From an uncultured Desulfobacteraceae bacterium (GTDB lineage: Bacteria > Desulfobacterota > Desulfobacteria > Desulfobacterales > UBA11574), in contig CAZQAF010000005.1 of assembly GCA_964591175.1 (NCBI GenBank), forward strand, positions 18,256-82,255: a stretch of DNA of 64,000 nucleotides, written 5' to 3'. Below, one piece after another: positions 2,950-34,278 of the stretch. Made by a program: the position numbers and the translations under genes. A model generated the notes under the pieces. It had not been told where the DNA came from, ran no database searches, and saw nothing but the letters and a program-made list of their open reading frames with translations. How positions within the stretch are numbered: position 1 is the stretch's first letter; each line of letters begins with the position of its first letter.

Positions 2950-5214
2950 ATGATCAGTAAAGAACTAAGTGAAACCCTGGGCTTTGCAGTCAGGGAAGCC
3001 AAAAGAAGACGACATGAGTATGTCTGCGTAGAGCATTTGCTTTTTGCTATTTTATACGACGGCGAAGGCATTGAAATTATAGAAAATTGTGGTGGTAATG
3101 TTGAAACGCTTAAAAATGAGCTGGAGATGTTTTTTAATGAACGGATGGAAAGTGTCCCCGAAGACAACGAATATGTTCTCCAGCAGACAGTCGGTTTTCA
3201 ACGGGTCATCCAGCGGGCGATTAATCATGTCCGTTCAGCAGAAAAACAGCAGGTTGAAGTGAGTGACATACTTGCCTCGATTTTTCAGGAGAAGGATTCC
3301 CACGCAGAATATTTTTTAAGCTCTGAAGGAATTACGCGCCTCGATGTTTTAGGCTACATTTCGCACAATGTTGCAAAACCTATCCATAAGGAAGGGATTG
3401 ACCCATTTATAACAACAGAAAAAAGAGATAAAAAGCAATCCTCTGATCCTTTGGAAGCATTTACCATCGATCTCGTGAAATACGCGGCTCAGGGCAAGCT
3501 GGATCCTTTGATTGGCAGGGACTTGGAGATGGAACGAACCGTTCAGGTTTTATGCCGACGTCGAAAAAACAATCCGATTTTCGTCGGAGATCCCGGCGTC
3601 GGGAAAACCGCAATGGCCGAGGGTCTTGCCATTCGGATCAGCGAAGGGTCTATCCCGGAATTGCTGAAAAATGTTCGTATCTATTCTCTTGATTTGGGCG
3701 GCTTGCTCGCGGGGACGAAATTTCGGGGTGACTTTGAACAGCGTTTAAAAGGGGTTTTGTCTTCTTTAAAAAAGAAAAAAGACGCCATTTTATTTATCGA
3801 TGAGATTCACACAACGGTTGGGGCCGGAGCAACCAGCAGAGGTTCCATGGATGCTTCGAATATTTTGAAACCCGCCCTGGCGACCGGTGAGCTGCGATGT
3901 ATCGGATCGACAACCTATGAAGATTATAAGAATTTCTTTGAAAAGGACCGGGCGTTGTCTCGCCGGTTCGAGAAAATAGAAATCCTGGAACCGCCGGTCA
4001 AAGAGACCATTCAAATTTTAAAAGGATTGCGATCCCGTTATGAGGAGCATCACGGCATCGTGTATACGGATCAGGCGTTAAAGGCCGCCGCCGAACTTTC
4101 CGCAAAATATATCAACGACCGTTATCTTCCCGACAAAGCAATAGATGTCATCGATGAGGCGGGGGCATTCGTTCGATTGTCCAATTCTCCCCATAGAAAA
4201 AGGATAAATCCCAAAGATATTGAAAATATTGTGGCCAAGATGGCCCGAATTCCCACCGTCAGTGTGTCAACGCCTGATAAAACGAAATTGGAGACCCTTG
4301 AAGAAAAAATCAAAGCGGTCGTTTTCGGACAGGATAATGCCATAACATCATTGGTCACATCCATTAAGCGATCACGAGCCGGTCTCGGAACACCCGAAAG
4401 ACCCGTTGGATCGTTTTTATTCGCCGGTCCTACCGGTGTCGGCAAGACCGAGGTGAGTCTGCAGGTTGCAAGGGTTCTCGGGGTTCATTTTTTGCGGTTT
4501 GATATGAGTGAGTATATGGAAAAACATGCCGTTGCCCGCCTCATTGGCGCACCGCCGGGGTATATTGGTTTCGATCAGGGAGGACTTCTGACGGACGATA
4601 TTCGGAAGCATCCTTACAGCGTGCTTTTATTTGATGAAATAGAAAAAGCGCATCCGGATATGTTTAACATCCTTCTTCAAGTGCTGGACCATGCGACGCT
4701 GACAGACAACAACGGGAAAAAGGCAGATTTTAGAAATGTCATTATCATGATGACCTCCAACGCGGGTACACGGGAGATGAGCACGCAAACCATCGGTTTT
4801 GGAGATAAGCAACATGATACCAAAGACAAAGGGAAAAAAGCCGTTGAAAATTTCTTTAGTCCGGAATTTAGAAATCGTCTTGACGGTATCATTCATTTCA
4901 ATCCGCTGAATGAAGATATCATGAAAAAAGTGGTGGATAAGTTCATAAAAGAGCTTCGCGGGCAGTTGTCTGCTAAAAAGGTAAGCATCGGCCTTTCTTC
5001 GGAAGCCCGCACGTGGCTGGCCAAAAACGGACATGACCCGCGTTTTGGCGCCAGGCCATTGAGTCGATTGATACAAGCTGAAATTAAAGATGTCCTGTCC
5101 GACGAGATTCTGTTCGGACGTCTTGAAAAAGGCGGCAACGTATTGATCGATGTTGAGAATTCAAAGTTGGCGTTTAACTACCATCCTAAAACTTCGTTGA
5201 AGGAAAACGCATAG
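2950..5214 (+). CDS. clpA: ATP-dependent Clp protease ATP-binding subunit ClpA
   Basis: 754 aa with a Clp N-domain and two AAA+ modules (Walker [10 protein letters not shown] and GPTGVGKTE). No long ClpB-type middle domain. Confidence 0.95.
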
Positions 5215-5393
5215 ACCGGCCATCGTCGGGTTGATGATACGGGTATAATCATATTTAAATAGTGCCTGAACGTAACTTTCCATATCGGCACTAAATTGAC
5301 GCTGTCATCTGGAAAGACAACGGCCTTATCAGTAGATCAAAGACGAGCAGGGTTATATGCGTGTTTTCCGCTTAATTATTTGACGATATCAGC

Positions 5394-6080
5394 GTGCCTG
5401 TTTTTCTTTTATCCGATACCGTTGGCTTTCCTCCGCCCTACCTTGCGTCCAAAGAAGGCTTGCTGGCCGTTGGGGGTGATCTCGGCATAAAACGGCTGAT
5501 TCTTGCCTATCGAATGGGAATTTTTCCATGGTTTTCAGATGGTGATCCGATTCTTTGGTGGTCGCCTGACCCTCGCCTTGTGTTGTATCCTTCCGAAATT
5601 AAAATCTCAAAAACCTTAAAAAAAATCATAAAAAAAAATGTATTCAAGGTAACCATGGACATGGCATTTGATGAGGTTATCAACCAGTGCGCACAAGTTC
5701 GCTTGCAAAAGAATCAAGGCACATGGATCGTCAAAGAGATGATCGATGCTTATTGCGAACTTCATAGATCCGGCTATGCACATTCAGTGGAAGTCTGGCA
5801 ACAGGAGGAACTGGCCGGGGGGTTATACGGCGTTTCTCTCGGAAAGTGTTTTTTCGGAGAATCCATGTTCAGCCGAGTCAGCAGCGCATCAAATGTCGCC
5901 CTCGTCAAGCTTGTTAAATATATTAGCAACTTATCGTTTGATCTGATTGATTGTCAGGTCCGCACCGAGCATTTGATCCGCTTCGGTGCCAGAGAAATCC
6001 CAAGAAAGCTTTTTTTAAGTCAACTTGAAAAATCTCTTGATGCGCCGACTCAAAAAGGAAAATGGGAATATATGATCTAA
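5394..6080 (+). CDS. aat: Leucyl/phenylalanyl-tRNA--protein transferase
   Basis: GTG start, 228 aa. FPPPYLASKEGLLAVGGDL and LAYRMGIFPWFSDGDPILWWSPDPR blocks are typical of L/F-transferase. Sits downstream of clpS-clpA (N-end rule trio). Confidence 0.9.
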   Translation: MPVFLLSDTVGFPPPYLASKEGLLAVGGDLGIKRLILAYRMGIFPWFSDGDPILWWSPDPRLVLYPSEIKISKTLKKIIKKNVFKVTMDMAFDEVINQCAQVRLQKNQGTWIVKEMIDAYCELHRSGYAHSVEVWQQEELAGGLYGVSLGKCFFGESMFSRVSSASNVALVKLVKYISNLSFDLIDCQVRTEHLIRFGAREIPRKLFLSQLEKSLDAPTQKGKWEYMI

Positions 6081-6430
6081 ACACCGAACTTTTTTTAAAT
6101 ACGGACAGGTTCAACGTCGTGTGTCATTTTTTTGGCGTTTTCTCTGAAGACGTATCCGCTTATTTTTGACAGGCCTTCCTTCAACATTCAAACCTTTTGA
6201 TGCAGATCCAATACTCAACCTTGTGAGAAATGATTTGAAGTCAGCGGCTGAAATACTTTCTTTAAGGTAAAATGGCGTTTTACGCAATATCATAAAACCC
6301 CGTATATAAAGAGGTTTATACGCAATAAATATTCTGATACCGGTATGTTATATCGTTTTTGCGTCCTATGGATCTTCATGCAATTCAACTGTGTTGTCGC
6401 CATCGCAATCAATTGATTTCATCAAAAATA

Positions 6431-6450
6431 ATTTTCCCCAATTTTCCCCT
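6431..6450. repeat. Tandem 10-bp direct repeat ATTTTCCCCA / ATTTTCCCCT
   Basis: Read directly at 6431-6440 and 6441-6450, immediately upstream of the duplicated sigma-54 promoter unit. Confidence 0.6.
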
Positions 6451-6460
6451 CTTTTTATTC

Positions 6461-6476
6461 TGGCCTGAAATTTGCA
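6461..6476 (+). promoter_or_regulatory. Putative sigma-54 (-24/-12) promoter, copy 1
   Basis: TGGCCTGAAATTTGCA has GG-N10-GC spacing identical to the consensus TGGCAC-N5-TTGCW. It lies about 175 nt upstream of the pilin ATG at 6649. Confidence 0.55.
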
Positions 6477-6483
6477 TTTATTC

Positions 6484-6499
6484 TGGCCTGAAATTTGCT
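6484..6499 (+). promoter_or_regulatory. Putative sigma-54 (-24/-12) promoter, copy 2
   Basis: TGGCCTGAAATTTGCT, part of a perfect 21-nt direct repeat of copy 1 (6455-6475 and 6478-6498). Confidence 0.55.
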
Positions 6500-6648
6500 G
6501 TTGTTCCAAATAATTATATGTTCATCCGGCGCTGCATCCTTTTTCCGGATTTTTTTGTAACAACGGACCGGCAGCTTTTTGGGTTTTCAACTTCTGAAAC
6601 GCTATGATTCGATAAGACTCACAATCAAAAGACAGGAGTACAGATACC

Positions 6649-7323
6649 ATGATCATCCGAATTAAGAACAAATGGCGATATTTGTCGGATAAAAGAGGGT
6701 TTACGCTTATTGAAATGGCCATTGTGCTAATCATCATCGGCATCATCATCGGGGCGGTGGTCAAGGGAAAGGACCTCATCCGAAGCGCAGAGCAAAAGAA
6801 AATTTACACGAAATATCTGAATGCATGGCGTATGGCCTACGCCAACTTCTATGACCGGACCGGAAAACGGCTGGGGGATTTTTATAATACCTTCGGTTCG
6901 TCGGGAGGGCAGGACGGAAAGGCCGACACAGATAGCAACAATGACGGTTCGATCAGCGATATGGAACGCGGATATCTTAAAACCGGAGATCCGGCAGGAA
7001 CCGGCTTCAGAGGGCTGGACACCGTCGGCCTGACTGCGCCTTCAACCAATACCGGTAATTGCTGGGAATATACCTATACCGATAAAGACGGCGGCGGTCA
7101 CAGATTATCTATAGCATTTAAATACGATCCGAATGGCAAGTACAATTACATGTGGATTAGCGAGCTGCCCAATGAGCTGGGGATGGCGCTGGATACCATC
7201 ATCGATAATGAAGCGAACGGCACTTCCGGGGATTTTTTATGTTTCGATCCGGGTGATGCCGTCAATTCAGACTGGAAGGCGCCCTCAACGGAAGTCAGCG
7301 CCCGCTGGAAAATGGATTTTTAA
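6649..7323 (+). CDS. Type IV pilin / pseudopilin-like protein
   Basis: Leader MIIRIKNKWRYLSDKRG is followed by FTLIEMAIVLIIIGIIIGAVV: the prepilin peptidase G/F cleavage and N-methylation motif, with Glu at +5. AGGAG lies about 10 nt upstream of the ATG. The globular part is Gly/Asp/Thr-rich. Confidence 0.87.
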   Translation: MIIRIKNKWRYLSDKRGFTLIEMAIVLIIIGIIIGAVVKGKDLIRSAEQKKIYTKYLNAWRMAYANFYDRTGKRLGDFYNTFGSSGGQDGKADTDSNNDGSISDMERGYLKTGDPAGTGFRGLDTVGLTAPSTNTGNCWEYTYTDKDGGGHRLSIAFKYDPNGKYNYMWISELPNELGMALDTIIDNEANGTSGDFLCFDPGDAVNSDWKAPSTEVSARWKMDF

Positions 7324-7327
7324 AAAG

Positions 7328-7837
7328 ATGTCTACGATAAAAATATTTCGATCCGGTTTGGTGACCGGTCTTCTCGTGGTGCTGTGTTTTTCGGCGGGGT
7401 ATTTTTTCCTTTCCGGTTACCAGCGGTATATTGTCAACCTGGACAAAAAAGCGGCATTGATCCGGCAGGCCGAACTGCTCAATCATCGACAAATCGACAG
7501 AAAGCAGAAATGGCAAGACATTATGAAAGTCAATCGATTTGTGAAAAATGCCGAGTTGTTGGGATTGGTACGAAAAAAATGGGCGGTTTATCATGTGGAT
7601 ATTCAGGATTCGGTCAATTTTACGGAAATGAGGAAATTATTAACCCAATGTACAAATGGAGATTCTCATTATTTCAAACCGATTTCATTTCACCTTAAAT
7701 CAATAAAAGCGATCGACAACAAAAAAAATACATCGGGTATGACGTCTCACCGTCAAAAAGGAGATATTCTCATGGTGCTCAAAGGCGCATTTTTCGTGAA
7801 AAACAATACTGGAATACCGGATGATGAAAAAAAATAA
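7328..7837 (+). CDS. Hypothetical membrane-anchored protein in pilus cluster
   Basis: I chose the ATG at 7328 (MSTIKIFRSGLVTGLLVVLCFSAGYFFL, N-terminal TM helix). The ORF-track extension back to 7133 overlaps the pilin gene out of frame. No recognisable motif. Confidence 0.6.
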   Translation: MSTIKIFRSGLVTGLLVVLCFSAGYFFLSGYQRYIVNLDKKAALIRQAELLNHRQIDRKQKWQDIMKVNRFVKNAELLGLVRKKWAVYHVDIQDSVNFTEMRKLLTQCTNGDSHYFKPISFHLKSIKAIDNKKNTSGMTSHRQKGDILMVLKGAFFVKNNTGIPDDEKK

Positions 7838-9119
7838 AAAACAATACGTCCTCGAGCTGGATGGTCTTTTCTACCATTTAAAAGATAGCCGTTTAAGACA
7901 AATTGCCGATTTAAAAGAAGTCAATGACGCGTATTGTTTTGTCACGGACCTGCAGGAAACGATTTCAAGAACCATGACTGTCGAAGCGCCGGCCAAATAT
8001 GCGGAATTTGTGGTTCGCAAAAAACTCCAGGAATCGGGCGATTTTGATGAGCCGGTGTCCGTGATTACGCATTGGAAAAAGAAAAGAGGCAAAAATACCA
8101 CCGATATATTTTTCACAGCGCTTCCAACACGCCAATACCACGTCTATCTTGAAAAAATTCGGACAAGCGAAGACGGCATTCTGATGATTCCTTTATATAC
8201 GCTGCTATATAATGTCTTAAAACAAATGCATTCGGAAGATCCCATTGCCGTCATATTTCAGCACGGGCGATTTGCCGACGTGATTGTCGGCAACAAAAGC
8301 CATATCTATTACTCGAATCGATGTGTTGCATTCGACAAGAGCGAAGCGCAAATCTCTGTGCTCTGGGATACCGTTCGGACAGATATTCAAACCGCACAGA
8401 CCGAAAACGGAATGAAGGTAAAAACGGCCATTCAACTCAGCTGGATCGATAGCGGAGAAAATCCGGAATGGACTGAAAACGAGGAATATGAATGGTGTCA
8501 TTTGGAAGAAGAACCCATATCGTTTGATGATGATACGTATTTGGTCTCATTTTCAAATGCGATAAGAAGACGATCGGGGAACGGCGCAATTACACCAAAA
8601 ATAGAGAAGCTTTATTATCACACGCAAAAATGGGCGGCACCGCTCAACATTTTTTTGCTTGTTTTCCTGTTGGCAATAACAGGCGGATATTTCTTATGCC
8701 GGAATAGAGCGGATCTTGTTGAAAAACAATTGAAACGAATGAACCGCCAGATCACAGGGCTAAGTGCCGATATTTCCATGAACGCGATCCCTGCTGAAAC
8801 ATACCGGGATACCTTCGAATTTATCAAAGATCTATCCTATTGCAAAAACTCACCTTCGTATCTGGATGTAATGAACGATGTTACGAAGGGACTTTCTTCG
8901 GATATGGAAACAGAAATCCTTAAGATCGATTATTCGGCCGATGCGATGACATTGGAGATATTCGGCCGGATTCAAGCGGATTTCGATTCGGCGCATAACG
9001 GATATCAGGAATTCATTTCATTCATGAAATCCAAAGGATATTCTGTCACGGAAAACAGGTTTGACACGAATATCCGTGAATCAAAATATCTTGCCAAATT
9101 TACAAAGAGGATTGGATGA
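7821..9119 (+). CDS. Bitopic pilus-assembly protein candidate (MshI / PilM-PilN-like architecture)
   Basis: 432 aa: a long cytoplasmic N-domain, one TM helix (APLNIFLLVFLLAITGGYFLC) and a periplasmic C-domain. Overlaps both neighbours (17 and 4 nt). Function assigned from architecture and position only. Confidence 0.55.
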   Translation: MMKKNKKQYVLELDGLFYHLKDSRLRQIADLKEVNDAYCFVTDLQETISRTMTVEAPAKYAEFVVRKKLQESGDFDEPVSVITHWKKKRGKNTTDIFFTALPTRQYHVYLEKIRTSEDGILMIPLYTLLYNVLKQMHSEDPIAVIFQHGRFADVIVGNKSHIYYSNRCVAFDKSEAQISVLWDTVRTDIQTAQTENGMKVKTAIQLSWIDSGENPEWTENEEYEWCHLEEEPISFDDDTYLVSFSNAIRRRSGNGAITPKIEKLYYHTQKWAAPLNIFLLVFLLAITGGYFLCRNRADLVEKQLKRMNRQITGLSADISMNAIPAETYRDTFEFIKDLSYCKNSPSYLDVMNDVTKGLSSDMETEILKIDYSADAMTLEIFGRIQADFDSAHNGYQEFISFMKSKGYSVTENRFDTNIRESKYLAKFTKRIG

Positions 9120-9643
9120 AAAGAAAATATAACGGACTTGTCGCGATCGTTATTATTGGCGCGGTTTTGCTTCCAACGGCGATTTATGCGGTTTATTCAT
9201 CCCAAGTTATCGGCAAAACAGATACCGCTCGGTTAAAGGTTTTCCCCTCTGATTTTACTGTTCCCGACGCTGCCGGTATGAGAAGAATATCCACCTTTGA
9301 AAAAGAGATGGTTGATATCTCCAACCCTAAAATCACGAAATCAATGCTGGATCGAGACGTTCGTTTCTGGCGTTATTCGGATCAAAATTATCATCGCGAT
9401 ATAACGAACAATCAGAGGCAAGAGGAGATAGATGCCAAAACAGCGCATGAATTAACCTTTGTTTTCGCATCGAGCGAGAAAAGATTTTGTATCATAGACG
9501 GCTCATTTTATGCTCAGGGCGCTGAACTTCCCGGCGGCGGAAAGATCGTGAAAATAGAACCGGACCGTGTTCGGGTGAAAAAAGGAAAATCAGCCCAATG
9601 GATACCGCTCTCGAAAACGACAAAGTGGGGCGAAATACAGTAA
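9116..9643 (+). CDS. Small N-terminally anchored pilus protein (PilP / MshK-like candidate)
   Basis: 175 aa with an N-terminal TM helix (LVAIVIIGAVLLPTAIYAVY). The C-terminal block FCIIDGSFYAQGAELPGGGKIVKIEPDRVRVKKG resembles secretin-interacting PilP/GspC-type domains. Context only. Confidence 0.5.
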   Translation: MKRKYNGLVAIVIIGAVLLPTAIYAVYSSQVIGKTDTARLKVFPSDFTVPDAAGMRRISTFEKEMVDISNPKITKSMLDRDVRFWRYSDQNYHRDITNNQRQEEIDAKTAHELTFVFASSEKRFCIIDGSFYAQGAELPGGGKIVKIEPDRVRVKKGKSAQWIPLSKTTKWGEIQ

Positions 9644-9713
9644 AGAACTTACAATCGAGCATTGTCGTTCAATCGGGGTTAAAGTCTACAGACGTGTAAC
9701 TGTCGGAGGGTTT

Positions 9714-11213
9714 ATGAGGCAATTTAATGTCATCTGGATAATAATTTTGTTGTTCTTCATGGCGGGCTGCGCAACCAGAGCCCCTGCACTCAAGCCATTG
9801 TCGCTTCAGACCACCCAGAAGCATATCGAGTCCGAGTCCGAAAAACTGGATGCGGCACACAAAAAATTTGTTTCCGGTCTGGAAAAGACGACACCTCGGG
9901 TCATAAAAGCGGAACCGGTAATGCCGGTTTACAATCCATTGGAAGACCATATGGTCTCTTTTTCAATGATCAACGAAGATCTCAAGGCGATTATGTATTC
10001 TCTGTCCCAGTCCGTCGGGATGAACCTGATCATTGACCCGGCCGTCAATCTTGAGAAGAAATCGCTCACCCTCAATTTCCAAAACGTTTCTGCGGCTATT
10101 GTTCTGAAAGAGATACTGAATAGCTATGATCTTTGTTACGAGATTCAAGGGAATGTCATCCGTATTATGCCGTATAAAGAACAGATGTTCAGTCTCGATT
10201 TTCTGGATACCAAAACGAATACCAATTTCAATGTCGGAGGTGATGTGCTTGGTGCATCGGAAGAAACCTCCAGCGGATTAAAGGGTAAGTTTGAACTATC
10301 CGGACAGGCGGCCAAACAGGGAAATGACTATGATGTTGTTGAACAAATGATCTCCCGGATCATGTCTAAAAACGGAAAATATACGCTCAACCGGCTTTCC
10401 GGAAGTCTTTATGTTAAAGATACCCCTGGGGTTATCCAATCCATTTCAAAATTGATTAATCATTTCAAGGCGATGTTATCCAGGCAGGTACTCATTGAAG
10501 CGAGAATTATCGAAGTCGGGTTGTCGGATAAGTATAAATACGGCATTGATTGGAGGGTGTTGCGAGATAAGGCTGCCTCATTAACGGCAAAAACCAGTGT
10601 GGCCTGGTCACTGGGTAACGGACTGGTTTTCAGCCATGCCAATAATGAATTTACCATTGATGCGGCCATGGACGCCTTAATGACGTTTGGTAAGGAAAAG
10701 GTGGTGTCAAACCCGAGCATTCGCGTCAAACATGGAAAACCCGCACTCATCAGTGTTGGCACATCCTTTACTTATAAGAAAAAAGTCCAGACCACGCGGG
10801 AAGTGACGACCGGCACTGACAGGCAAATAACGGACGTCGATGTTTCTACCGTGTTTGACGGGCTTATTTTGGGAGTGATTCCCTTTATCGGTGAAAACCA
10901 AAGGATTTCTTTGCTGATCAATCCCATCAACAGTTCGGTTAATCGAGAAAGTTTGGTTCCGAAAAGCGTCGGATCGGGGGACCAGGAAATATCCCTTCCT
11001 CAGGTCAGAATCAAGGAAATGAGTACAACCATTGAGCTTACAAGCGGCGATGTTGTGGTTTTGGGAGGCTTGATCGATGACGTGCAAACCACGGAAGATA
11101 ATGGAGTGCCAATTCTATCAAGCATTCCCATATTGGGGTATCTTTTTAAAAATCAGACAAAAGATATAGAATCAAGGGAACTCGTTATTATTTTGAGTGT
11201 AAAGCTGGTATGA
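9714..11213 (+). CDS. Secretin lipoprotein (MshL / PilQ / GspD family)
   Basis: Lipobox FFMAGC. The C-terminal secretin signature is VVVLGGLIDDVQTTEDNGVPILSSIPILGYLFK...RELVIILS. Confidence 0.88.
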   Translation: MRQFNVIWIIILLFFMAGCATRAPALKPLSLQTTQKHIESESEKLDAAHKKFVSGLEKTTPRVIKAEPVMPVYNPLEDHMVSFSMINEDLKAIMYSLSQSVGMNLIIDPAVNLEKKSLTLNFQNVSAAIVLKEILNSYDLCYEIQGNVIRIMPYKEQMFSLDFLDTKTNTNFNVGGDVLGASEETSSGLKGKFELSGQAAKQGNDYDVVEQMISRIMSKNGKYTLNRLSGSLYVKDTPGVIQSISKLINHFKAMLSRQVLIEARIIEVGLSDKYKYGIDWRVLRDKAASLTAKTSVAWSLGNGLVFSHANNEFTIDAAMDALMTFGKEKVVSNPSIRVKHGKPALISVGTSFTYKKKVQTTREVTTGTDRQITDVDVSTVFDGLILGVIPFIGENQRISLLINPINSSVNRESLVPKSVGSGDQEISLPQVRIKEMSTTIELTSGDVVVLGGLIDDVQTTEDNGVPILSSIPILGYLFKNQTKDIESRELVIILSVKLV

Positions 11214-28602: not shown

Positions 28603-29823
28603 TTATAGTTGTTTCTTGATACTGTATTTCTTTATCCGGTTTCCGTCCATCTCTTCCACGGTGACAATAAAGTTTCCCAGGGTGATTTGTTCTTTTTCAA
28701 CGGGAATCCTGCCGATGGTATTTAAGACATAACCGGAAAAAGTGTCGTAATCTTTTGACTCTGGGATCTCCATCCCTATGATATCATTGATCTCGTCGAT
28801 ATCCGATTTTCCGAGAACGATCCAATCTTTGACTTTATGTTTGACAATGTGCGGCTCTTCCTTGTCTGTTTCGTCGCTGATTTCCCCCACAAGTTCTTCC
28901 AAGGCATCCTCGAGCGTGATGAGTCCGGATACGCCGCCATGTTCATCTACAACAATGGCCAGATGGTGTTTTCTTTTTTTGAACTGATGAAGCAGCTTAT
29001 CCAGTTTTTTATTTTCCGGAACAAAATAAGGAGCTGTCATAGTTGTGCGGACGTCAATATCGTTGTCGGAAGTAATGATATGTAAGAAAAGATCTTTTAT
29101 GTTCAAAATGCCGATGATATGGTCAACATCGCCTTCAATAACCGGAATTCTTGTAAAACCCGATTCAATGATCTTTTCAAAGTTCGGTTTTTCATCGGCA
29201 TCGATGACGAACATGTCTCCTCTCGGCGTCATGATCTCTGAAGCATTGGTGTCATCGAACTCGAAAATATTGTGGATCAGTTCTTTTTCTTCTTCTTTAA
29301 TTTCACCTTCTTCTTCAACAACTTCGACAAAAGTCATCAGTTCTTCCTCGGTGACCGTGGGCGTTTTTTTGATTTTTCCGGTGAGCTTGGGAATAAAATT
29401 TAAGAAAATAAGAATCGGATAACAAATAACCGAGAACCAATAGATGGGATATATGGTCATTCTCGCAATGAGAACATTATTTCGTGTGGCGATGGATTTC
29501 GGCAGCACTTCTCCGAAAACAAGAATTAAAAAAGTCATGACGCCGGTTGCAACGCCAACCGCATAATTTGTAAAATAATGAATGGCAAGGGATGTCGCAA
29601 GAGCCGCCGCCCCCACATTGACGACATTATTCCCGATCAGGACTGTGGAAAGGAGTCGATGCGGATCATCTTTCATCTGTCTGATCAGGATGAAAGCCTT
29701 GTTATTGTTTTTAGCCAAATGTCTGGCTTTTGTTCGACTGATGGAGAAAAGGGCCGTTTCCGCTGATGAGAAAAAACCGGACAGAAAAAGCAACACTATC
29801 AATACAATAATTTGGTTTATCAT
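28603..29823 (-). CDS. CNNM/CorB-type transporter (DUF21 + CBS pair + CorC_HlyC domain)
   Basis: N-terminal DUF21 with FFSSAETALFSISRTK, a central CBS pair and a C-terminal transporter-associated domain. Confidence 0.88.
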   Translation of the reverse strand: MINQIIVLIVLLFLSGFFSSAETALFSISRTKARHLAKNNNKAFILIRQMKDDPHRLLSTVLIGNNVVNVGAAALATSLAIHYFTNYAVGVATGVMTFLILVFGEVLPKSIATRNNVLIARMTIYPIYWFSVICYPILIFLNFIPKLTGKIKKTPTVTEEELMTFVEVVEEEGEIKEEEKELIHNIFEFDDTNASEIMTPRGDMFVIDADEKPNFEKIIESGFTRIPVIEGDVDHIIGILNIKDLFLHIITSDNDIDVRTTMTAPYFVPENKKLDKLLHQFKKRKHHLAIVVDEHGGVSGLITLEDALEELVGEISDETDKEEPHIVKHKVKDWIVLGKSDIDEINDIIGMEIPESKDYDTFSGYVLNTIGRIPVEKEQITLGNFIVTVEEMDGNRIKKYSIKKQL

Positions 29824-30029
29824 GATGCCTATGGATCTTTTAAAAACTTCAGAAACAAGAGACTAAATCCTTTTGTTAAAGTGCAAATTTCAAAAACATC
29901 CATTGTGAACGGGTCTTTATTTCTCTTGCAAACCAGATGGCGTCATGCCATATGGAATGAAACTATAATATATGCAGATTTTTCATTTTTCAAGTCAATA
30001 AAGCAAGATGAACGCGATTTATAGCAAAT

Positions 30030-33000
30030 ATGTCCCAAAAAACTGACATCAAGGAATATATTGATGCCCTGGTATCTTCCAAACGTTTGGGATCGCAGGT
30101 GGTGTACCATAAAATTTTGCCGGATCAACCCGCCTGCCTGTCACAGACGAAACTTCCGTGGCCCGAACCGATTCGGCGCATCATCTCATCCCAAGGGATA
30201 CGCGATCTCTACCGGCATCAGTCGGAGGCCGCTGATTTAATCCGTTCCGGGCACCATGTGGTGATTGCCACCCCCACCGCGAGTGGTAAAACACTGATTT
30301 ACAATCTTCCGGTTTTGGAAAACATACTTAAAAATTCCGAGTCAAAGGCCCTTTATATCTTCCCGCTAAAGGCTCTTGCCCAGGATCAACTGCGCACATT
30401 CGAAGCGCTGAGCCGATACAGCAATGAGATAGCGCCTAAAATTGCCATTTATGACGGAGATACATCGGCCTGGCATCGGAAACGAATCAGAGAAAGCCCG
30501 CCCAATGTTTTGTTGACCAATCCTGAAATGATCCACCTTTCCCTTTTGCCGCATCATCAAAAATGGGCTGATTTTTTTAAAAAACTGGAAATGGTCGTGG
30601 TGGATGAGGTTCATACCTACCGGGGAATCATGGGATCGCACATGGCCCAGGTTTTCAGACGGCTTCAAAGAATTTGCGCCTATTACGGGGCGTTTCCGAC
30701 CTTTGTGTTTTGCTCGGCGACCGTGTCCAATCCTGCCCAACTGACCCGACAGCTCACCGGGCTGAATGTCGACACCATCACAAAAAGCGGTGCGCCTTTG
30801 GGCAGAAAGCACGTTGTCTTTATCAATCCTGTTCAAGGTCCGGCCCAGACTGCTATACTGCTATTAAAAGCCGCGCTTCACCGGGGGCTGCGCACCATCG
30901 TGTACACTCAGTCGAGAAAACTCACCGAATTGATCGCTATATGGGCCGGGAGTCAATCCGGACCGTTTACAAACCGCATCAGCGCTTATCGGGCGGGGTT
31001 TCTTCCTGAAGAGCGAAGAGAAATCGAAGCAAAACTTGCCAAAGGCGAACTGCTGGCGGTGATATCCACCAGTGCCCTGGAGCTCGGCATCGATATCGGC
31101 GATCTGGATCTGTGCCTGCTGGTGGGATATCCGGGAACCGTGGTGGCAACCTGGCAACGGGGCGGCAGGGTAGGGCGAAGCGGACAGGATTCCACACTGG
31201 TGCTCATTGCCGGGGAAGATGCCTTGGACCAGTATTATATGCGGCATCCGGAAAGTTTTCTGAAACGGGAACCCGAAGCCGCCGTGGTCAACCCCTATAA
31301 TACCGAGATCCTTTCCAGGCATATCATTTGCGCCGCAGCCGAGCTACCGTTAAGGAAGAATGAACCGTTTGCGTCCGATGCGCATGTTCAAGAAGCGATC
31401 CACATGCTCACTGAAAACAACGCGCTTTTAACCAGCGGGGATGGAACGGAATTCTATTCCAGCCGAACAGCGCCCCATCGTCATGTGGATCTAAGGGGAA
31501 CAGGAAGCCGTTATCATATCGTGGGCAGCGGCGCCGGAAAAAACAAAGGAGAGATCGACGAATTCAGGGCATTTAAAGAGACGCATCCCGGTGCGATTTA
31601 TCTTCACAAAGGCGACACTTTTCTGGTGGATGTTTTGGATCTGGATACCAAAACCGTAAAAGTCTCAAAAGCCAAGGTCGATTATTATACCCGGGTCAGG
31701 TCTGAAAAAAATACGGAAATACTTGAAATATATGATTCAAAAAAAATATATGAAACAGAATTTTATGCCGGACGACTTAAAGTTACGGATCAAGTGGTGG
31801 GCTATGAAAAATGGCGGATACACACCAAAAGAAGATTAAGTGTTGTACCTTTGGATCTGCCGCCGTTGATCTTTGAAACCCAAGGCTTGTGGTTTAAAAT
31901 TCCGCTTCACATCCAGCGACAGGCTGAAGCGCAATATCTCCATTTTATGGGCGGGATTCATGCTGTTGAACATGCGGCCATCGGTATCTTTCCGCTGCTG
32001 GTGATGGCCGATCGAAACGACCTCGGCGGCATCTCAACCCCGATTCATTCCCAGGTGGGCAGTGCTGCGATATTTATTTACGACGGGGTCCCGGGTGGTG
32101 CCGGATTGAGCAGACAGGCCTATAAAAGGGCAAAAGATCTGATTGAAAATACCCTTGACGTGATCCGTGCCTGTCCGTGTGAATCAGGATGCCCTTCCTG
32201 CGTTCATTCCCCGAAGTGCGGTTCCGGAAATCGTCCCATTGATAAGGCGGCGGCGATTTTTATCTTAAATAAGATTATATTGGCGCAGGGTTCGAAGACA
32301 CCGAAAAAAGAACGTTTTCAGATATCTTCCCCGGCAAAAAGCGATCCGGTGCTTGGAAAAAACATTTCGTTACCGGCCAACTCATCAGTAGCGGCAAGGG
32401 GAAAAAATCCCGTGGGCCATCAGCGGCTTTTTCGAAAAAGATTGTATGCAAGGCGCAAAGGGCTAAAACGCAGCTTTATGACATCACCGGAAATCAACCC
32501 TCCGTCCGGAGAATCGGACCTTAGATTCTGTATTTTCGATATCGAAACACAACGGTCCGCCCAGGAAGTCGGCGGCTGGCATCGGGCGGATCTGATGGGT
32601 ATCAGCTGCGTTGTGCTGTATGACTCAACACAAGATCTATATTTCGAGTTTTTGGACAATCAGGTGAACGAACTTGTCGAGCATTTGAAAAAATGCGATC
32701 TGGTGGTCGGGTTTAATGTCAAGCGATTCGACTTTAGGGTGCTGGGCGGGTATTCGGATTTTAACTTCAAGAGCCTGCCCACCCTGGATATCCTTGAAGA
32801 AATTCACAACCGGCTCGGATATCGCCTTTCTCTGGATCATCTGGCCAGGGTGACCCTGGGCAAGGAAAAGACGGCAAACGGACTCCAGGCCCTTCAATGG
32901 TGGAAGCAGGGACGCATCCGTGAAATCATCGATTACTGTAAAAAAGATGTTGAGATTACAAAGGATCTTTTTTTATACGGCCAACGAAACGGCTACCTGC

Positions 33001-33050
33001 TTTTTATGAACAAGGCCAAAAAGACGGTGCGTATCCCTGTGAAATGGTAG
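30030..33050 (+). CDS. MrfA/YprA-type DEAD/DEAH helicase with DUF1998 Zn module, fused to a C-terminal RNase H-fold (MrfB-like) exonuclease
   Basis: Walker A TPTASGKTL and DEVH box VVVDEVHTY. Cys cluster CPCESGCPSCVHSPKCG (32172-32219). After a basic linker come FCIFDIETQ, GFNVKRFDFRVL and DYCKKDVEIT (DEDD-type Exo I-III) from about 32520. Confidence 0.85.
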   Translation: MSQKTDIKEYIDALVSSKRLGSQVVYHKILPDQPACLSQTKLPWPEPIRRIISSQGIRDLYRHQSEAADLIRSGHHVVIATPTASGKTLIYNLPVLENILKNSESKALYIFPLKALAQDQLRTFEALSRYSNEIAPKIAIYDGDTSAWHRKRIRESPPNVLLTNPEMIHLSLLPHHQKWADFFKKLEMVVVDEVHTYRGIMGSHMAQVFRRLQRICAYYGAFPTFVFCSATVSNPAQLTRQLTGLNVDTITKSGAPLGRKHVVFINPVQGPAQTAILLLKAALHRGLRTIVYTQSRKLTELIAIWAGSQSGPFTNRISAYRAGFLPEERREIEAKLAKGELLAVISTSALELGIDIGDLDLCLLVGYPGTVVATWQRGGRVGRSGQDSTLVLIAGEDALDQYYMRHPESFLKREPEAAVVNPYNTEILSRHIICAAAELPLRKNEPFASDAHVQEAIHMLTENNALLTSGDGTEFYSSRTAPHRHVDLRGTGSRYHIVGSGAGKNKGEIDEFRAFKETHPGAIYLHKGDTFLVDVLDLDTKTVKVSKAKVDYYTRVRSEKNTEILEIYDSKKIYETEFYAGRLKVTDQVVGYEKWRIHTKRRLSVVPLDLPPLIFETQGLWFKIPLHIQRQAEAQYLHFMGGIHAVEHAAIGIFPLLVMADRNDLGGISTPIHSQVGSAAIFIYDGVPGGAGLSRQAYKRAKDLIENTLDVIRACPCESGCPSCVHSPKCGSGNRPIDKAAAIFILNKIILAQGSKTPKKERFQISSPAKSDPVLGKNISLPANSSVAARGKNPVGHQRLFRKRLYARRKGLKRSFMTSPEINPPSGESDLRFCIFDIETQRSAQEVGGWHRADLMGISCVVLYDSTQDLYFEFLDNQVNELVEHLKKCDLVVGFNVKRFDFRVLGGYSDFNFKSLPTLDILEEIHNRLGYRLSLDHLARVTLGKEKTANGLQALQWWKQGRIREIIDYCKKDVEITKDLFLYGQRNGYLLFMNKAKKTVRIPVKW

Positions 33051-33080
33051 AAGTGGTTTCAAAACCTCCCCTCGGCCTCA

Positions 33081-33125
33081 ATCCGCCAAAGGCGGACAAG
33101 TCTCTGTGTTGGACTGAGACGTCCA
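33081..33125. terminator. Hairpin cluster between convergent genes (possible bidirectional terminator)
   Basis: TCCGCC-AAA-GGCGGA (33081-33095), followed by overlapping stems GTCTC...GAGAC and TTGGAC...GTCCAA (33099-33125). No clear U-tract. Confidence 0.3.
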
Positions 33126-33156
33126 ATCTTCGAAATATTCCCGACAAAATATCTTG

Positions 33157-34278
33157 TCAATGATGTGTATCCTGTCCTAAGGTCTTTTGCTCTGGATAAA
33201 TAATGAGCCGGTCTCCCGGATGGATGGGTTTGTCCAGATCAATTCGATTCCAGATAATCAGGGCTGCCAGGGGCACATTGAATTTTTCGGCAATGATTGA
33301 CAGATTATCCCCCTCTTTAATGATGTAGATCCGGTCGGTTTTCTTTGCTTCATAGGCCTTGATCAGCTTTTTGTAGCGTGCGTTGAATCCCTTTTCTGCT
33401 CCTTTGGGTATCAGAATCGTATGGTTCCCTTCAATGAGATAGTGACCACGAATTTCAGGGTTGAGGTCCTTGATCACTTTAAAATCTGTTTCAGAGGCTT
33501 TTGCGACAAGGGCGAGCGGGATTTCCTGGAAGCAGTCTATTTGAATCTTATCGAATGTAAGGGGTGGATAATAGTCCGAGTCTGTGAGATGAAAGCCGAA
33601 CCCATCGGGATTCGACAAAATCAGTTTGACCGATAGGATTCGGAAAATAAATCGCTGGGTTTCTATCGGCAGATAAAGCCGGTAATAATCCCGGGTATGT
33701 TGGACCATGATTTCAGCTTCCAGTCCTTCCTCTCCCATATTGTAAGCGGCAGCCGCCAGGGTCCAGGATCCCATGGATTGATGAAGGGCCTTTAAGTGCG
33801 CTATTGCCGCCTGGGTGGAGGCAAATATATTTCGCCGTTCATCGATGGTATCGTTAATGATCAGGTCGTACCTTCGCCCGATATCCGGCAGAATCTGCCA
33901 GTATCCAATGGCCCCGTCCTTGGAGCCGGCATAGGAGAGGAGGGCGCTTTCGGCAACGGCCATGTATTTGAGATCTTCGGGCATGTTGTTTTTTTTGAGC
34001 ATTTTTTCGATAATCGGCAAATATCGACGGGAGCGCTTCAGCCAGAGAATCACCTGGGGGCGATTTCCAAGGGACAGCAAAAGTTCTTTTTCCATACGTT
34101 CCATAACATCCCGGTTTTCCATGGGAACCCGCTCATTACAGAACGAAAGGGCTTTCATGTTTTTAACGGCGTTTAACAGCGAAGGGAGCTCCAGTGGATT
34201 GGCCGGCGCACCCGAAGCTTCGCATGTTAACGCCAAAATCATTATCGGAATCAGAAAAATCGTTTTTTTTATATGCAT
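33157..34278 (-). CDS. Lytic transglycosylase (SLT domain) with C-terminal LysM
   Basis: Signal peptide, SLT catalytic block MAVAESALLSYAGSKDGAIGYWQ and LysM YIIKEGDNLSIIAEKFNVPLAALIIWN. Confidence 0.85.
   Translation of the reverse strand: MHIKKTIFLIPIMILALTCEASGAPANPLELPSLLNAVKNMKALSFCNERVPMENRDVMERMEKELLLSLGNRPQVILWLKRSRRYLPIIEKMLKKNNMPEDLKYMAVAESALLSYAGSKDGAIGYWQILPDIGRRYDLIINDTIDERRNIFASTQAAIAHLKALHQSMGSWTLAAAAYNMGEEGLEAEIMVQHTRDYYRLYLPIETQRFIFRILSVKLILSNPDGFGFHLTDSDYYPPLTFDKIQIDCFQEIPLALVAKASETDFKVIKDLNPEIRGHYLIEGNHTILIPKGAEKGFNARYKKLIKAYEAKKTDRIYIIKEGDNLSIIAEKFNVPLAALIIWNRIDLDKPIHPGDRLIIYPEQKTLGQDTHH

Follow-up and report, generated by a model that had tools for sequence, protein, structure and literature searches.

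Does the single-chain helicase-exonuclease encoded at 30030..33050 (+) represent a fusion of the repair proteins MrfA (YprA) and MrfB, as originally predicted, and does it serve DNA repair or phage defense? The gene lies in a 64,000-nucleotide stretch of DNA, referred to here as the window, from an uncultured Desulfobacteraceae bacterium (assembly GCA_964591175.1, contig CAZQAF010000005.1, positions 18,256 to 82,255). We consider it likely, at a probability of about 0.7, that the product is a DNA helicase-nuclease complete in itself, belonging to the repair (non-defense) branch of the MrfA/YprA family. Its features, with the evidence for each, are as follows.

30030..33050 (+): whole gene, a 1006-aa helicase-linker-exonuclease fusion (ATG to TAG)
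30213..31184 (+): superfamily 2 (SF2) helicase core, RecA1 and RecA2 (Pfam; key residues invariant in 20 homologs)
31287..31502 (+): winged-helix (WH) domain of the Hrq1/MrfA type, aa 420-491 (PF22982, 31.9 bits)
31503..31964 (+): beta-rich region, aa ~492-645, putative counterpart of MrfA OB and CON (collinear 6znp alignment; modelled strands)
31965..32285 (+): MZB/DUF1998 zinc module, aa 646-725, and the following helix, aa 739-751 (PF09369; model)
32286..32516 (+): basic disordered linker, aa 753-829 (composition; predicted score in the local distance difference test, pLDDT)
32526..33047 (+): predicted DEDDy 3'-5' exonuclease domain, aa 833-1006 (invariant columns; AlphaFold2, AF2; Foldseek; phrog_403)
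32538-32546 (+): ExoI, D837/E839 (invariant columns)
32715-32732 (+): ExoII, N896/D901 (invariant columns)
32934-32948 (+): ExoIII, Y969/D973 (invariant columns)

The open reading frame (ORF) is uninterrupted and has no internal stops, in agreement with the original prediction. The start codon is backed by N-terminal alignment with homologs; no obvious Shine-Dalgarno sequence was seen before the ATG at 30030. A Pfam scan of the 1006-aa protein matched all four of the domains anticipated: DEAD at 62-235 (111 bits), Helicase_C at 282-385, MZB/DUF1998 (PF09369) at 646-725 (85.5 bits; cut-off 24.2), and RNase_H_2 (PF13482) at 835-980 (31.1 bits; cut-off 22). The scan also matched WHD_HRQ1 (PF22982) at 420-491. 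Every motif quoted at the outset was found: TPTASGKTL (K87), DEVH (192-195), and CPCESGCPSCVHSPKCG (C715, C717, C721, C724, C730) in the helicase, and FDIET (D837, E839), GFNVKRFDF (N896, D901), and DYCKKDVEIT (Y969, D973) in the exonuclease.

The N-terminal part had been described as an MrfA/YprA-type helicase, and this description was borne out. Helicase residues 14-727 matched residues 11-732 of Bacillus subtilis MrfA/YprA (PDB 6znp) in a single alignment (E = 5.9e-156), and the WH and MZB domains are present. Identity to Bacillus inaquosorum MrfA was 38% over 745 aa. The nearest NCBIfam model was TIGR03817, at 733 bits, below its 874-bit cut-off. RecA1 (DEAD, aa 62-235) contains motif I GKT (K87), motif II DEVH (192-195), and motif III SAT (229-231), and RecA2 (Helicase_C, aa 282-385) contains motif VI QRGGRVGR (376-383). 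Across 20 fused homologs there was no variation at K87, D192/E193/H195, S229-T231, or Q376/R377/R380; C715, C717, C721, and C724 of the MZB module were likewise invariant, the module having a further cysteine at 730. Residues ~492-645 would correspond by position to the OB/CON elements, named after PMC7797055, and the full-length AF2 model places beta strands at 494-624. Judged from these alignments, residues 1 to ~750 form a full-length, collinear MrfA-type helicase. The DExH core, WH, OB/CON, and four-Cys MZB are shared with MrfA (PDB 6znp, 6znq, and 6zns), Mycobacterium smegmatis SftH, and yeast Hrq1. However, MrfA stops shortly past the MZB, whereas the fusion protein continues with 77 aa of basic linker and then the exonuclease.

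The exonuclease domain was aligned with 14 complete stand-alone homologs of ~175-198 aa that are 38-48% identical to it. The invariant residues were D and E in ExoI, N, F, and D in ExoII, and Y and D in ExoIII, which is the DEDDy signature. D837, E839, D901, Y969, and D973 were invariant in the 20 fused homologs too (63-76% identity), and the fifth catalytic position was Tyr (Y969) in all 35 sequences aligned. The patterns DxE, Nx3(F/Y)D, and Yx3D are represented by FDIET, GFNVKRFD, and DYCKKD, respectively. Thus, the catalytic acidic residues, which the original prediction had allowed might be missing on proper alignment, are in place.

Structural comparisons were made using an AF2 model of the domain based on the stand-alone homolog alignment (pLDDT 93.1; predicted template modelling score, pTM, 0.87). 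With Foldseek, the PDB matches were polymerase proofreading domains (family B, E. coli Pol II, RB69, and T7; probability 1.0), those from family B and from Pol II having template modelling (TM) scores of ~0.60-0.65. In a structure search of viral models, the best match was a 214-aa protein (TM 0.77, 28% identity), followed by phage polymerases. In PHROGs, the domain matched phrog_403, "DNA polymerase exonuclease subunit" (E = 2.9e-15). Searches of the PDB with the C-terminal domain yielded no meaningful match by phmmer and only weak T7 polymerase and NrnC-like matches by profile. Alignment and model show a compact exonuclease domain of the DEDDy class that resembles polymerase proofreading domains and for which a two-metal, 3'-5' activity is predicted. 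Its closest sequence kin are the phrog_403 family and the ~180-aa stand-alone PolB-exo-like exonucleases, whose bacterial members are 40-48% identical to it; these are free-standing or joined to Sipho_Gp157 or WYL, whereas the present domain is joined to a helicase. Two relatives, P0219 and P0228, consist of the exonuclease plus Sipho_Gp157, and a third, P0256, of the exonuclease plus WYL; such fusions point to phage and regulatory or defense-type uses of the same nuclease module.

The original prediction also allowed that a frameshift or stop in the linker might appear in independent assemblies, leaving two genes after all. Instead, the uninterrupted architecture recurs. A protein-cluster search scored on residues 800-1006 (candidates of 553-1760 aa; E <= 1e-3) matched 2,219 protein clusters drawn from JGI, ENA, NCBI, and Logan assemblies, and nearly all of the 120 matches listed were 950-1040 aa with the same Pfam set. 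Among these matches are proteins from a 6.6-Mb contig of the isolate Desulfonema ishimotonii, whose genome is complete, and from a 3.4-Mb contig of a metagenome-assembled genome (MAG). A fused member was also present in a MAG labelled Candidatus Aerophobetes. A survey of the architecture, proposed together with the prediction, located the exonuclease domain in 136 of 401 genomes sampled evenly across the phylum, with nearly all copies in 940-1210-aa frames, so that ~30% of the sampled genomes have the fusion in frames of this size; an MZB census of the sampled genomes returned the same frames. Because the same architecture occurs in independent assemblies with intact catalytic residues, we conclude that the fusion is real and selected.

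Short-frame matches in the phylum were considered as natural split genes beside a helicase, and this was rejected. In two genomes, G388 (L022, contig C2) and G229 (L023, contig C132), the fused gene is broken into several overlapping frames, and these copies are frameshifted, being either pseudogenes or assembly errors. The remaining short-frame matches are stand-alone exonucleases with no helicase within ~6 kb.

The C-terminal domain had been called MrfB-like, and here the original prediction was not supported in the form given. For MrfB itself, the gene that follows mrfA in Bacillus and relatives was taken, and an 11-sequence alignment was built. BLASTP of the fused domain against MrfB gave an E-value of 3.4, which is not significant. 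The MrfB structure, 8UN9, was not found in the PDB with the domain by phmmer or profile at E <= 10 and was absent from the top 50 Foldseek matches of the exonuclease model. PF13482 scores were 137 bits for MrfB, 113 for a Desulfobacterota MrfB-like protein, and 138 for a 281-aa protein of the same genome, but 31 for the fused domain. The fifth catalytic residue is His258 in MrfB (DEDDh) versus Y969 in the fused domain (DEDDy). Finally, MrfB has an N-terminal extension that it needs to bind MrfA, and it carries a TPR domain at its C terminus (PMC11194089). The fused domain is without both the extension, which is ~100 aa in MrfB, and the TPR: it starts at beta-1 (residue 833), right after the non-conserved disordered linker, and the protein ends 33 residues past D973. 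No TPR domain was returned by the Pfam scan of the fusion protein; the same scan of MrfB gave weak TPR/ARM matches at 286-384.

A relationship was nevertheless detected using hhalign (probability 65%, E = 5.9e-5). The register places DxE on DxE, NxxxFD on NGKAFD, and Y-x3-D on the H-x3-D of MrfB, such that D837, E839, D901, and D973 align to the D/E/D/D of MrfB. Based on this motif alignment, the fused domain and MrfB are homologous at the superfamily level. They have in common a DnaQ-like/RNase H fold, three equally spaced Exo motifs, and an expected 3'-5' polarity, and MrfB, like the fused domain, works with an MrfA-type helicase. Fold and chemistry are thus common to both nucleases, which nonetheless fall into separate subfamilies. 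From the degree of similarity, the fused exonuclease is probably not an MrfB ortholog and would come from the ~180-aa stand-alone exonuclease family with phage relatives.

The same alignment could be read as a plain MrfA-MrfB fusion. According to this reading, the domain is a fast-evolving, trimmed MrfB ortholog that performs the mitomycin-type adduct excision of MrfAB, the TPR and the N-terminal extension having been lost once covalent linkage made both unnecessary. ExoI, ExoII, and ExoIII align in register with the Tyr at MrfB His258, both domains exceed the PF13482 cut-off, and the structure of MrfB is described as closer to DEDDy exonucleases than to DEDDh ones (PMC11194089). Where the literature mentions such proteins, in the Fig. 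6 legend of 10.1101/426304 and in 10.1101/2025.09.15.676423, it names them fused MrfA and MrfB homologs. We judge this reading unlikely. The BLASTP E-value of 3.4, the failure of 8UN9 to match by sequence, profile, or within the Foldseek top 50, and the PF13482 score of 31 versus 137 bits all stand against it. So do the complete ~180-aa homologs that stand alone away from helicases, some of them in genomes without an MZB helicase, and the helicase tree, in which the true-MrfB-paired helicases of the same phylum fall on the side away from the fused ones.

Three states were distinguished in the phylum. The fused form is the majority state. In the second, found in G023, G025, and G026, an unfused MrfA has a true MrfB-like gene immediately upstream, whose product matches Bacillus MrfB at BLASTP E-values of 1e-19 to 1e-10. 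In the third, with seven examples, an unfused MrfA has no nuclease nearby. For the helicase portion, a quick maximum-likelihood tree was computed (43 rows, 749 columns, midpoint root) and evaluated using the Shimodaira-Hasegawa-like approximate likelihood ratio test (SH-aLRT) only. One group contained Bacillota MrfA and the MrfB-associated Desulfobacterota helicases (SH-aLRT 97), and the other contained the fused helicases together with helicase-only ones (SH-aLRT 97). Thus, the fused helicase and the MrfA helicases associated with MrfB lie on separate branches. On this tree, the fused lineage appears to be the sister of the MrfA-plus-MrfB lineage and not the product of fusing that operon. A helicase-only clade is nested among the fused helicases, which suggests that the helicase-only forms arose by loss of the exonuclease domain.

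Stand-alone exonucleases of the fused type were not found beside helicases, and the genomes of several (G113, G287, and G387) lack MZB helicases altogether. In the exonuclease-domain tree (177 columns), which was poorly resolved, fused and stand-alone forms were intermixed; the number of fusion events was therefore left uncounted. With the nuclease only a remote relative of MrfB and the true mrfB-mrfA pairs on the other helicase branch, the Rosetta-stone interpretation was not supported in the form given. The predicted physical helicase-nuclease machine fared better: the general idea of a helicase coupled to a 3'-5' exonuclease stands, but the fusion is not direct evidence of contact between MrfA and MrfB. 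Because the nuclease belongs to a subfamily other than that of MrfB, the fusion speaks for a general pairing of helicase with nuclease, not for any particular interface between MrfA and MrfB.

Additional observations were made on the nucleases of this phylum. The mrfB-mrfA pairs, which belong to other families of the phylum, lie at L104 8938-10455 (-) with 6705-8954 (-), at L105 2-400 with 391-2673, and at L106 2385-3257 with 3430-5715. In these pairs the exonuclease is upstream of the helicase, opposite to the order in Bacillus. The MrfB-like protein of G023 is 505 aa with a ~330-aa N-terminal extension. The genome of the window also contains a stand-alone, 281-aa YprB-type exonuclease (L001 1363-2208 (-); G000, contig C3, ~15.3-16.1 kb) with the motifs DIETTG, YNGKNFD, and YNIQD. 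It matches B. subtilis MrfB across the whole exonuclease (E = 7e-5), much more closely than the fused domain does, and its gene adjoins a UbiD-like decarboxylase gene, not a helicase gene.

In G287, a stand-alone 219-aa copy of the exonuclease (L021 6609-7268 (-)) is 67% identical to the domain in the window. It directly abuts a 388-aa ORF (L021 7269-8435 (-)), from which a single stop codon separates it without a change of frame; judging by its N-terminus only, this ORF is putatively dGTPase/HD-like. An MZB helicase was not detected in G287, and in the exonuclease tree the copy falls among the closest of the fused domains, so that it looks like a secondary fission accompanied by helicase loss. 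In G295 (L018), a second, stand-alone copy at 6385-6933 (+) is followed by same-strand ORFs at 7024-8805 (593 aa) and 8783-9850 (355 aa), with which it may form a small operon.

The gene context bears on the choice between repair and defense. The fusion gene is monocistronic, with a divergent CNNM/CBS/CorC transporter gene upstream and a convergent SLT-LysM gene downstream. The 206-bp divergent intergenic region (29824-30029) is AT-rich and contains a promoter-like site for the CNNM gene at 29993-29965 (-); a promoter and terminator scan of 29700-33300 was otherwise uninformative. Genes for CheX, GMP synthase, a TrpF-like barrel, EF-P, a glycine-zipper lipoprotein, a rhomboid protein, and sucrose synthase lie within ~6 kb. 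As had been claimed, no methylase or defense gene was found within ~6 kb on either side. Likewise, defense partners (methyltransferase, BrxHII-like helicase, and PLD/Vsr nucleases) were found neither here nor in the three relatives examined, and no partner genes are conserved beside the fused gene across these relatives. The CNNM neighbor is kept in both near relatives examined, with guaA and efp upstream of it in one of them; the fused gene of D. ishimotonii has different neighbors. Since the neighbors are housekeeping genes, the context favors repair rather than defense, as the original prediction proposed.

An anti-phage or anti-plasmid effector, a helicase-nuclease that shreds foreign DNA in the manner of the YprA-family helicases of Druantia, ARMADA, and DISARM, was also considered. 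The PADLOC models BrxHI, SngC, DruE, and DrmA match the helicase core, C-terminal nucleases on YprA-family helicases are typical of defense systems (10.1101/2025.09.15.676423), and the exonuclease family includes phage members as well as the Gp157 and WYL architectures. However, the PADLOC matches are confined to the generic SF2 core (residues ~50-400), none covering the whole protein, and no methyltransferase, PLD/Vsr nuclease, or other defense gene is nearby, either here or in relatives. Extra zinc modules and inserts of the kind described in defense-branch helicases (10.1101/2025.09.15.676423) are also missing from the domain layout. Moreover, the gene encodes the only MZB helicase of this genome, is found in about one-third of the phylum's genomes, and retains housekeeping synteny (CNNM, efp, and guaA) in near relatives, which together amount to a vertical, core-like pattern. 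With partner genes lacking here and in relatives, a defense role was set low, and we regard it as very unlikely.

The linker joining the two enzymes was predicted to be basic and ~90 aa long. Its basic character was confirmed (17 K/R and 4 D/E; pI 11.6), but its length is ~77 aa (753-829). In a full-length AF2 model based on a 20-sequence alignment (pLDDT 67.8, pTM 0.45), which was used for linker disorder only, the linker had a pLDDT of 27-37 and no secondary structure, as compared with 80-94 for residues 833-1006. Across 146 fused homologs, the linker spans 17-252 aa (median 64) and has a median net charge of +8 and ~25% Lys/Arg; its sequence, like its length, varies. By model and composition, it behaves as a flexible, nucleic-acid-friendly tether rather than as a domain.

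For a repair-branch helicase-nuclease, what biochemistry has established for B. subtilis MrfA and MrfB and for M. smegmatis SftH offers a mechanism by analogy, and the simplest version of it is as follows. The motor would load on single-stranded DNA (ssDNA) at a nick or gap, translocate 3'->5', and draw the strand that it tracks from the duplex. The DEDDy exonuclease on its tether, kept within reach of the freed strand by the basic linker, would then digest the freed 3' end of that same strand. As a result, a damaged segment would be removed, or a 3' flap or tail trimmed. MrfB has been proposed to degrade the strand displaced by MrfA. MrfA and SftH track ssDNA as 3'-5' helicases, and the exonuclease MrfB has 3'-5' polarity (10.1101/2025.09.15.676423).

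Several points weigh against the repair-branch assignment and the separate origin of the nuclease. The full-length model is weak and does not speak to whether the nuclease docks onto the helicase, and the helicase tree was built from Bacillota MrfA and the fused, helicase-only, and MrfB-associated helicases. Hhalign puts all three Exo motifs onto those of MrfB, and calling the nucleases non-orthologous depends on how similar they are and on a tree that was small and quickly made. To our knowledge, no fused member has been characterized for activity, substrate, or phenotype. Lastly, DEDDy nucleases of the same fold include RNases (RNase D and NrnC), so an RNA substrate is possible.

An RNA-directed machine of this kind would combine the helicase with an exoribonuclease for the processing of RNA or R-loops. 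Apart from the RNases of the DEDDy fold, a "diDNase ancestor"/NrnC-like chain is among the weak PDB profile matches, and the strongly basic linker could bind RNA. We consider this the least probable of the alternatives: the helicase is collinear with MrfA throughout, its characterized relatives, MrfA and SftH, are DNA helicases, and the nuclease most resembles, in structure and profile, the proofreading domains of DNA polymerases.

Fused MrfA-exonuclease proteins were noted by Burby and Simmons in 2018 (bioRxiv 10.1101/426304, Fig. 6 legend), and fused forms also appear in a 2025 survey of the YprA family (bioRxiv 10.1101/2025.09.15.676423). The proteins in these sources are of the same class as the one described here, with a repair-branch MrfA/YprA helicase and a 3'-5' exonuclease in one chain. 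In that legend and in the survey's mention, the fusion is noted in passing and the nuclease is labelled an MrfB homolog, whereas the nuclease analyzed here belongs to a non-MrfB subfamily. The architecture is not new and is standard in sulfate-reducer relatives. As it is common and already noted, the finding is mainly a good annotation. To this we add a modest refinement: in this lineage the nuclease appears not to be an MrfB ortholog, and the fused helicases seem to form their own branch. The mode of interaction between MrfA and MrfB is still open (PMC7797055). A naturally covalent MrfA-family helicase and 3'-5' exonuclease could be a convenient single-chain subject for studying how this poorly understood repair helicase passes DNA to a nuclease.

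Human WRN, compared here by analogy only, likewise unites an SF2 helicase and a DEDD exonuclease in a single polypeptide. In WRN, both polarities are 3'-5' and the exonuclease is DEDDy. The two proteins differ in that the helicase of WRN is of the RecQ family and its exonuclease is N-terminal, whereas the fusion protein has an MrfA-family helicase and a C-terminal exonuclease. Tentatively, and at somewhat less than even odds, the Desulfobacterota-type fusion may be an independent, WRN-like coupling of an MrfA-clade helicase with a DEDDy exonuclease of the polymerase-proofreading type with phage kin, one that replaces MrfB in most of the phylum. If so, the protein may act on 3' flaps, stalled forks, or blocked 3' ends, unlike MrfAB, which acts on mitomycin adducts. 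Finally, Staphylococcus aureus DinG also combines an SF2 helicase and a DEDD 3'-5' exonuclease in one chain, with the exonuclease at the N terminus (PMC12345164). DinG translocates 5'-3' and belongs to a different helicase family.

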